Source of the DNA: a virus
Virus record (IMG/VR): IMGVR_UViG_3300019758_000001
Coordinates: 2,597-66,596 of that record
Reading direction: 5' to 3' (one strand)
Length of the DNA stretch: 64,000 bases
In this document: positions 57,782 to 58,913 of the stretch, one piece after another
Layout: each line of letters opens with the position of its first letter
How positions within the stretch are numbered: position 1 is the stretch's first letter
Made by a program: the position numbers and the translations under genes
The notes under the pieces: model-generated
The model's database searches: none
What the model saw: the letters and a program-made list of their open reading frames with translations, nothing else
What the model was told of the DNA's origin: nothing

Positions 57782-57822
57782 AATATAAAGTGTTAATTAT
57801 TATTTGCGGCTTATGCCTTTAG

Positions 57823-57862
57823 TCCCTGTTTAGAATCGAATCTCACAACTAATTTGACAGGG
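57823..57862 (-). ncRNA. Minimal tRNA-like element
   Basis: CCCTGT/ACAGGG+A-CTA; TGAGA-TTCGAT-TCTAA. Confidence 0.5.
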
Positions 57863-57880
57863 TTTAATGTTATACAAACA

Positions 57881-58132
57881 TTAAATTATACGTACCTCTT
57901 TTTCGTAGTTAATATAACTTGTTCTACTACCATCTAATACGGTTCTAGGTAGTTCACCAATTTTCACAAGCTCGTTAACTATTTCGTGATCTTCACCCCT
58001 GTAACCTGCTGTATTATATCCAACTTCGCAAACGTGGCACGGCTTATTATTCTCAACTCTGTAAACCTGTAATGTTACTTTAGACGCGTATTTAGTTTCT
58101 TTAACCTGCTTAGTATAAATAAATGTTTTCAT
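57881..58132 (-). CDS. Hypothetical protein
   Basis: Early-region ORF. Confidence 0.7.
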   Translation of the reverse strand: MKTFIYTKQVKETKYASKVTLQVYRVENNKPCHVCEVGYNTAGYRGEDHEIVNELVKIGELPRTVLDGSRTSYINYEKEVRII

Positions 58133-58156
58133 ATCGTATAAATTTAATAGTTCGTA

Positions 58157-58360
58157 TTATCTTAATTTCTGAGCACCTTCAGCGATGCAAATTAAATCTT
58201 CAAACTCAAAACCGTAATCTTCACCCGTTTCTTCAAAGTGTCTTATTAAATCCTGAGCGTAAAAACCGTATTCTTCAGCACCTTTAAAAGCGTCTGACCA
58301 GTTACCGTTCTGTGCGTTTTCCATTATCTCAATAAATTGTTCTTCAGTTCTGTAGTTCAT
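58157..58360 (-). CDS. Hypothetical acidic protein
   Basis: Early-region ORF; NGNWSDA. Confidence 0.7.
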   Translation of the reverse strand: MNYRTEEQFIEIMENAQNGNWSDAFKGAEEYGFYAQDLIRHFEETGEDYGFEFEDLICIAEGAQKLR

Positions 58361-58396
58361 AATATATAAGTGTTGTGCTCATCTGAGCTGGTTAGA

Positions 58397-58440
58397 TCCT
58401 CCACATATCTCGCGACATGTTACACGCTCAGCGCTGGAGG
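58397..58440 (-). ncRNA. Minimal tRNA-like element
   Basis: CCTCCA/TGGAGG+A; GCGC-TGA-GCGT; CATGT-CGCGAG-ATATG. Confidence 0.5.
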
Positions 58441-58913
58441 TGGTATTGTGTTGTATTAAAATTTATAAGCTAGGAAAAAAGCAGCAGTAAAGATGAGTGC
58501 TAAGCAACCTCCAGTAATTAAGGCAAAAGTACTTAATAAATGTATTGCTACTGCTACAATACTAACTGTGATAAGCATAAGGCAAAAAATAACGATAATG
58601 TTTTGGGCAGTGTTGAAAAGTTTCATAATGATATGTATTAGATTATTCGTTTATATTGTATTGTAAAGGTGAGGTTTATTTTATTAAGAAACAAACTAAA
58701 TAAGACCTTTTGCTTTTAAATCTCGATCTATGCGCTCTAGTAATTCATCTCTTTTGCGGTTATAGAATGCTATTAAATCAGCGTCTTGTTTTGGATCTAA
58801 TGACTCTATTAATTCACTAACTTCATATAAATTCATAATATAAGGGTTTGCGCTCCTGTGAGCTGGTTAGTTATTATACTGTAAATATACGGTGAATGTT
58901 ATTAAGAAATAAA

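Follow-up and report, generated by a model that had tools for sequence, protein, structure and literature searches.

In the 64,000-nucleotide (nt) stretch of phage DNA considered here (the window, bases 2597-66596 of the 66,596-base-pair (bp) virus record IMGVR_UViG_3300019758_000001), three genes are preceded on the coding strand by one and the same leader, in which the motif CUAACCA runs into a short hairpin. We tentatively favor, while granting it somewhat less than an even chance, the reading that this conserved unit is a modular cassette of the 5' untranslated region (5'-UTR) that would serve translation starts lacking a Shine-Dalgarno (SD) sequence, and not a tRNA mimic. As we picture it, the cassette would consist of a single-stranded CUAACCA, a 4-bp GC hairpin and an open spacer of 15-16 nt, with adenines at -13 and -12, before the AUG. 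It would be placed where a start must be set up behind a promoter (58.87 kilobases, kb), behind a tRNA-like gene (50.33 kb) or behind folded intercistronic RNA (element B below, 58.40-58.44 kb), with degenerate cassettes behind a stop codon and behind another promoter. The hairpin most likely acts on the RNA, where it would keep upstream structure out of the initiation region and set the point at which the ribosome meets open, A-rich RNA.

The repeated leader

The sequence CTAACCAGCTC occurs exactly three times in the window, at 58870-58860, 58395-58385 and 50333-50323, in each case on the minus strand, which is the coding strand here; allowing up to one mismatch adds no further match, and the whole 66.6-kb genome holds no forward and three reverse matches. 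Shuffled sequence contains 0.67 copies on average, and three copies were reached in 2 of 100 shuffles. Every copy runs into a 4-bp hairpin of the form GCTC-N4-GRGC, the end of which lies 15, 16 and 15 nt from an ATG. Leader copy 1 (58852..58870, minus strand) follows its CUAACCA linker with GCUC-ACAG-GAGC, 15 nt ahead of the ATG at 58836; copy 2 (58377..58395, minus strand) has GCUC-AGAU-GAGC, 16 nt ahead of the ATG at 58360; and copy 3 (50315..50333, minus strand) has GCUC-GAAA-GGGC, with one U-G pair, 15 nt ahead of the ATG at 50299, which opens a 91-amino-acid (aa) gene (phrog_30702) whose product is, from its sequence, a putative lipoprotein. The adenines at -13 and -12 are invariant across the three. 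A first-pass annotation of this DNA had described a leader, a hairpin and a start codon in succession behind elements at 58397 and 50334, and the same hairpin directly after a promoter at about 58860; both descriptions stand, copy 58870 lying downstream of a promoter-like 58-nt repeat.

Across the copies the loop letters change (ACAG, AGAU, GAAA) while the stem is kept, in one copy through a U-G pair, a combination that would not match in DNA or on the opposite strand. Variable loops, a kept stem and a U-G pair speak for a structure formed by the coding-strand RNA and against a palindrome in the DNA, and together with the three exact coding-strand copies they favor the cassette reading. A palindromic operator is unlikely, given that one copy pairs only by way of U-G and that the conserved part is asymmetric. 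Also consistent with that reading, the linker is predicted to be unpaired (0.89 in copy 2, 0.96 in copy 3) and the stem paired (~0.99) in these two internal copies.

A covariance model of the leader, R1, was built from the three canonical copies, which score 37.5, 38.2 and 36.7 bits on it in the order given above, and the window was searched at expectation values (E) up to 10. Two weaker variants emerged, both in 5'-UTRs, at 57379-57350 and 59183-59150. The first (57350..57379, minus strand; 12.9 bits, E = 0.64) comes after the stop codon of a 134-aa gene and combines UAACCA with a CCC/GGG hairpin, 16 nt from the ATG at 57340. The second (59150..59183, minus strand; 14.2 bits, E = 0.3) follows a copy of the promoter-like repeat at 59179-59236 and combines AAACCC with a GCCC/GGGC hairpin with a 10-nt loop, 15 nt from the ATG at 59141. 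The spacing of 15-16 nt is kept in the three canonical and in both weak copies, a regularity on which the cassette reading leans. Neither variant has a folded element in front of it, which implies that the leader does not need a processing site.

The 58-nt repeat ahead of copy 1 (58874..58931, minus strand) belongs to a promoter-like family, D1, of five copies, whose degenerate pattern gives 6 matches against 0.03 expected. In Bacteroidota the -7 box of sigma-A promoters lies at -12 to -5, according to the portions of two papers drawn on here (PMC6847099; PMC9723704). A box of this type, TATATTTA, stands at 58889-58882, with A in place of G at -5 relative to TAnnTTTG; among the five minus-strand D1 copies TAHHTTTR is found in three and TTT is kept in all five. 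From the box-to-start spacing, the transcript ahead of copy 1 is predicted to start at 58877, 7 nt before CUAACC, so that primary and processed 5' ends would not be identical. The leader hairpin would sit 14 nt from this predicted 5' end, which is far for an end-protecting stem-loop. The D1 copy at 1003-1045 (plus strand) has its predicted start on the A of ATG 1046, in the same register, and would give a leaderless message. In a second promoter-like family, AAAATACTTGCA stands ~18 nt before a TAYATTTG box, in three copies at 3350 (plus strand), 52246 (minus strand) and 50863 (minus strand). The idea of a phage RNA polymerase using hairpin promoters, as in N4-like phages, was rejected: the 1912-aa protein is the tape measure, and no polymerase family appears in our protein family scans, which compared 100 open reading frames with PHROGs and 16 with Pfam.

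Most genes of the window have no SD sequence and carry an A-rich stretch upstream, and the large terminase is nearest to those of Bacteroides phages, at 34% identity. For initiation in a Bacteroidetes species that has no SD sequences, the part of Baez et al. (2019; PMC6847099) used here gives A at -3, -6, -12 and -13, little pairing between -20 and +20, and bS1 near -12 to -15. The leaders share with initiation regions of this kind the adenines at -13 and -12 and an open stretch before the start, in a genome in which most genes likewise have no SD; they differ in that the same part of that paper describes neither a fixed hairpin ending at -16/-17 nor a conserved CUAACCA. The matching adenines, the SD-less, A-rich upstream regions and the Bacteroides-type terminase are further grounds for reading the leader as a start cassette. 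A strong AGGAGGA at SD distance is seen in a minority of genes (~7-9 of 127, mostly at overlapping gene junctions, and in none of the rest), examples being those at 16186-16743, 16745-17065, 26823-27089, 27898-28287, 33977-34438, 53685-53924 and 63451-63612.

Between 47.9 and 61.6 kb every plausible gene is small and on the minus strand, an arrangement that fits an early region. Upstream of the early genes (37 genes) AACC occurs 13 times against 4.8 expected, and upstream of the other 90 genes 11 times against 11.7; this enrichment, too, favors the cassette reading. Over the window as a whole, 12 of 33 upstream hairpin ends fall 15-16 nt from an ATG, at 11 of the 127 genes. Two sets of control phage loci lack this peak, with 6 such ends among 444 genes in one and 7 among 1234 in the other, and the contrast is a further point for the cassette. 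Hairpins that are long and U-tailed precede the terminase gene (23075-25054; 14 nt), genes 8519, 10950 and 29138, and the tape measure gene (34796; 17 nt), at distances of 14-17 nt. Such hairpins ahead of late genes leave no space for a promoter behind them, and those upstream of genes 8519 and 34796 have an inner motif in common.

Elements A and B and the tRNA-like genes

Two folded elements, A and B, lie in 95- and 99-nt intergenic spacers on the coding (minus) strand. Element B (58397..58440, minus strand), which precedes leader copy 2, is predicted to form a three-way junction over its 44 nt: the outer helix, CCUCC/GGAGG, is 5 bp long and encloses two hairpins, one of 4 bp and one of 7 bp that ends in a GCGA loop. 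The last base of the element, 58397, is an unpaired A. Its fold of -17.5 kcal/mol has a sense z of -3.27 (0 of 300 shuffles as good) and an antisense z of -1.22, and the G-U pair in the 7-bp helix would become an A-C mismatch on the opposite strand. Element A (57823..57862, minus strand) is an irregular stem-loop of 40 nt. Its closing helix has 6 bp and is followed by a 4-bp helix, from which a 4-nt bulge in the 5' strand separates it, and by a weak tip of 3 bp; the base at 57823 is an unpaired A. The predicted fold, at -10.4 kcal/mol, is marginal, with z = -1.96 on the sense strand, where 9 of 300 shuffles do as well, and z = -1.29 on the antisense strand. Behind A, at 57808..57822 (minus strand), come CUAA and a 3-bp GGC/GCC hairpin with an AUAA loop, 26 nt before the ATG at 57781 of the 134-aa gene. 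This hairpin (CTAA-AGGC-ATAA-GCC) is weaker than the leader's and different from it, gives no R1 match at E up to 10, and is a loose variant at best. Both elements do lie between genes on the coding strand, as the first-pass annotation had it, and both are sense-strand stem-loops, marginally so for A.

Several smaller features touch element B. An 8-codon open frame inside it, ending at the TAA of CTAACC, was put down to chance, since the other copies, read by eye, have none. The sequence ACCTCCTG comes directly after stop codons in three early spacers (60939-60946, 59394-59401 and 55583-55590, all minus strand), where a rough estimate gives a chance expectation of ~1 in the whole window, and its variant ACCTCCAG forms the 5' strand of the outer helix of B. 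We take ACCTCCTG to have the same sense as the 16S rRNA 3' end, and not to be its complement.

The stem-loops of A and B are real; their likeness to tRNA is not, and the earlier observation is confirmed in part. Both had been described as tRNA-like minihelices of acceptor stem plus T-loop, a description that fails on T-arm, CCA, Rfam and ARAGORN alike. In A a TTCGATT heptamer is present, with 2 of 5 flanking positions paired, where the same T-arm comparison on the tRNA-like gene at 50334, taken as a control, gives 5 of 5; B has no T-loop-like heptamer of the UUCRANN type, the loop of its inner hairpin being the GCGA tetraloop. A 3' CCA after the discriminator helps bacterial ribonuclease (RNase) P, and CCA follows neither element, A being followed by CUA and B by UCU. 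The Rfam tRNA model RF00005 (gathering score 29 bits) has no match in 57600-59000 at E up to 10, and among the 4227 models of Rfam 15 nothing reaches gathering score in the window, the sole match in 57600-59000 at E up to 10 being a chance small nucleolar RNA (E = 2). ARAGORN in its default setting makes no tRNA call at A or B, and at the 80% and 60% thresholds it only joined distant halves across introns of 143-645 nt (301-645 nt around A and B), which we take to be artefacts.

What does hold of the minihelix outline, as opposed to its T-loop and tRNA likeness, is the way each helix meets the sequence behind it. In the window CTAA is preceded, at 1-2 nt, by a GC-rich closing stem of 6 bp in three places, which are exactly the three sites of the first-pass annotation; for the 51 CTAA sites of coding-strand spacers the expectation is 0.10-0.32, by criteria picked after the data were seen. 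This junction architecture (closing helix, one unpaired A, (U)CUAA) is real and not random. In B, the predicted fold lets the helices of 7 and 5 bp run along a single unbroken 3' strand of 12 nt, followed by the unpaired A, and this modeled stack, which has the length of an acceptor/T-arm stack (about 12 bp), is the one feature that may be a true likeness to it; the predicted fold of A has 4 + 6 bp and then A. Both outlines are of a sort that many bulged hairpins share. The junctions, the 12-bp stack of B and a third site at which an Rfam-positive tRNA-like gene (35.8 bits) has a promoter box upstream and an mRNA downstream all speak for the proposal that A and B are tRNA minihelix mimics, whose borders host RNase P and RNase Z would cut as at 50334, so that messages would start with the CUAACCA-hairpin leader. 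We consider the proposal improbable, since it must contend not only with the missing T-arm pairs, heptamer, CCA and tRNA matches, and with the lack of anything credible from relaxed ARAGORN, but also with the marginal stability of A, with leader variants that have no upstream helix, and with a predicted primary 5' end 7 nt upstream of CUAACC.

For the 50334 element alone is punctuation by RNase P and RNase Z plausible. This tRNA-like gene (50334..50425, minus strand) scores 35.8 bits on RF00005, in permissive mode only; its anticodon loop is enlarged by a 27-nt insert, and its D stem is poor. It ends on the discriminator A, and leader copy 3 begins at the very next base. A second tRNA-like gene (50701..50766, minus strand; RF00005 36.6 bits) has a truncated anticodon arm. 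Both are missed by ARAGORN and by the default filters of Rfam, and both lie within the 599-nt spacer 50300-50898, with ~275 nt of unassigned sequence between them. Their acceptor stems differ at two pairs, both changes being compensatory. A perfect TATATTTG box at 50863-50856 lies upstream of both, and with the downstream mRNA it makes a promoter-tRNA-like-mRNA unit plausible. Because the 50334 gene passes the Rfam tRNA model and has its own promoter-driven unit ahead of an mRNA, its maturation by host tRNA enzymes would free a message starting CUAACC. The window also encodes an RNA ligase, at 25150-26127, and decoy or repair-related roles of the tRNA-like genes are worth a look.

Known systems mark out how far such a parallel might go. 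In the thrU-tufB operon of E. coli and the tRNA clusters of phage T4, as in the unit of promoter box 50863-50856, two tRNA-like genes and an mRNA, maturation of a tRNA (here, of a tRNA-like gene) would free the message; the phage genes differ in being non-canonical and uncalled by ARAGORN, and the likeness is limited to the 50.3-kb copy, not extending to A or B. Plant mitochondrial t-elements and punctuating tRNAs offer folded intergenic elements for which cutting by RNase P and RNase Z, defining mRNA ends, is proposed, and one leader copy abuts a tRNA-like gene here. They have a recognizable acceptor stem and T-arm, unlike A and B, which show no T-arm, CCA or model match. That a mitochondria-like punctuation is at work throughout, with cut-down tRNA-shaped helices (A, B and 50334) recognized by RNase P and RNase Z and with messages that start with a leader doubling as a structural SD stand-in 15-16 nt from the start, seems to us very improbable. 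A full-text literature search on tRNA-like elements in phage polycistronic mRNAs gave nothing specific among the listings and the opening lines of abstracts.

Under the cassette reading, A and B would be stem-loops formed on the sense strand within a polycistronic early transcript. They may shield the upstream message at its 3' end, and may also set off the exposed A(U)CUAACCA linker as a place for an endonuclease to cut. An intrinsic terminator scan finds nothing at either element, the stems being followed by ACUAAAGG and AUCUAACC, and with no U tract A and B are not canonical terminators. Cutting beside an upstream helix, in a linker, is the general logic of early-mRNA processing in T7 and T4. 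One may therefore do without tRNA mimicry and suppose that the exposed, A/U-rich linker is cut by an RNase E/G- or RNase Y-type enzyme, the upstream stem-loop guarding the 3' end and the small hairpin the new 5' end. The linker, predicted to be unpaired between stable helices (0.89 and 0.96), fits this supposition, as does the lack of a U tract and of a called terminator at A and B. On the other hand, enzymes of these types do not need an exactly conserved CUAACCA, and the promoter-proximal copy keeps the linker sequence though no helix lies upstream of it; we judge such processing unlikely, if worth keeping in mind. The RNase III sites between the early genes of T7 offer another comparison, for there, too, irregular stem-loops stand in polycistronic early spacers, and a single cut would leave a hairpin on the upstream message. 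RNase III needs ~20 bp of mostly continuous duplex, about two helical turns; the longest stack here reaches 10 bp in A, which has 13 paired positions, and 12 bp in B, which has 16 pairs in all, and both fall short of that length.

Relatives, duplication and binding partners

Comparison with other genomes yields very little, and scans with the leader patterns gave nothing beyond chance hits. The leader pattern finds 61 single-copy loci among viral contigs, none resembling the window; a longer leader pattern finds 9 metagenome-contig loci, none related, and 6 genome-contig loci in taxa that are scattered, going by the record titles; and the promoter pattern finds 15 viral-contig loci, none syntenic. 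Alignment of the 134-aa protein, the large terminase and the major capsid protein against viral contigs gave no relative. Only five homologues of the capsid protein were found, of which the nearest (78% identity) is encoded by a 59-kb contig. The 91-aa gene has homologues at 35 loci and a 335-aa gene at 13, in mosaic, non-syntenic phages that share one or two genes with this one; the canonical leader is missing from all of them, the best R1 scores being 18 and 17 bits.

One hint comes from contig L126, which carries a distant homologue of the 134-aa protein (29% identity over 104 aa, E = 5.6e-7). In the spacer behind it stand AACCAGC and a 5-bp hairpin of different letters, and the matching spacer of the window is the one that holds the 57379 variant; this, too, we count in favor of the cassette. 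In contig L118 (18168-18221) an unrelated gene is preceded by CTAACC, a long GC hairpin and 15 nt of spacer that almost match the spacer of leader copy 3. A succession of hairpin, (C)UAACC(A), A-rich stretch and ATG is seen in these Bacteroidota-type phage contigs at L118:18168-18221 and at L126:2804-2859, 3404-3482 and 5303-5333.

Several observations weigh against the cassette reading. The canonical form is kept in no relative found, covariation being limited to three copies in one genome, and in L126 the hairpin stands 2 nt, not 15, from the ATG. The linker of the promoter-proximal copy 1 is predicted to be just 0.49 unpaired. The pile-up of hairpin ends at 15-16 nt may reflect no more than a compact genome in which some minimum of unstructured sequence must be left. 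Around their start codons the genes at 58836, 58360 and 57781 have CUUAUAU..AUGAA in common, which fits duplication of whole 5'-UTRs. Finally, an exact 11-nt match that includes 7 unpaired bases exceeds what a structural fence would need, and points to a specific binding partner or to a recent duplication.

That the leaders have no special function, being copies of a single 5'-UTR that recombination between early-gene cassettes spread recently, with A and B as incidental hairpins, would account for the motif's presence in one genome only. The similarity of copies 1 and 2 extends to the start codon, the 10 bases CCAGCTCAGA are common to leader copy 2 and the 3' end of the tRNA-like gene, and A is not significantly structured, all as duplication would have it. 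What duplication does not explain is that the stem persists, through a U-G pair in one copy, beneath loops that have drifted apart, that B is strongly structured on the sense strand only, and that the 15-16-nt spacing is kept in variants of unrelated sequence; we regard it as distinctly unlikely.

The 11 exact bases in three copies, 7 of them unpaired, and the start-codon sequence common to genes 58836, 58360 and 57781 would also suit an RNA site for a specific protein or RNA partner, whether it is bound by a translational repressor that governs a small regulon of early genes or is a nut-like site for antitermination. The layout resembles boxA and boxB of the lambda nut site: a short single-stranded motif and then a small hairpin, once near a promoter and again between genes. 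It departs from nut in that the loop is not conserved, its letters differing in all three copies. Nor does a partner come to light, for no N-like protein and no RNA-binding, sigma factor, nuclease or antiterminator family is found among the scanned frames (100 against PHROGs, 16 against Pfam), and with no forward match there is no complementary sequence elsewhere in the genome. On the minus strand no canonical terminator lies downstream, except at 49481-49465. Such a binding site therefore strikes us as scarcely probable. T4-type PeSL cassettes are similar insofar as repeated regulatory modules stand between small early genes of a variable region, but those are a terminator and a promoter acting at the DNA level, whereas here the repeated unit lies downstream of the promoter and two of the three copies have no promoter.

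Genomic setting and significance

The record has an exact 123-bp terminal repeat. The PHROGs and Pfam scans find in the window a tape-measure protein, a portal, a large terminase, a major head protein and the RNA ligase; the phage has a tape-measure gene, as in long-tailed phages, and is of Bacteroidota type. DNA nearly identical to it is present in 13 microbial-mat metagenome runs, none of them listed as RNA. In contigs from four DNA metagenome runs compared with the window, the differences listed all lie within 51670-51901, and none is listed at elements A and B. A diverged version of 51637-51938, part of the 335-aa gene, is found in contigs of four metagenome runs, with 50 other letters in 302 nt and unrelated flanks. 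With its upstream neighbor the 335-aa gene forms a two-gene module, which recurs at 66-78% identity in otherwise unrelated phage contigs of 43-72 kb. Runs of TCGTTCG repeats (plus strand) lie at 54580-54840, 55795-55810 and 56319-56360; the coding strand reads ACGAACGAACG, and these repeats stand directly ahead of the ATGs at 54584 and 54763.

The finding matters for two questions: how the ribosomes of Bacteroidota choose a start without an SD sequence, and how their phages split long early transcripts into units. The phage offers a compact, repeated and easily mutated cassette, made of a 7-nt single strand, a 4-bp hairpin and a fixed spacer of 15-16 nt. Should the helices before the cassette prove not to be cut, they would be ordinary 5'-UTR hairpins beside an unusual pair of tRNA-like genes; should they prove to be cut, they would provide an example of structure-guided mRNA punctuation in a phage of Bacteroidota.

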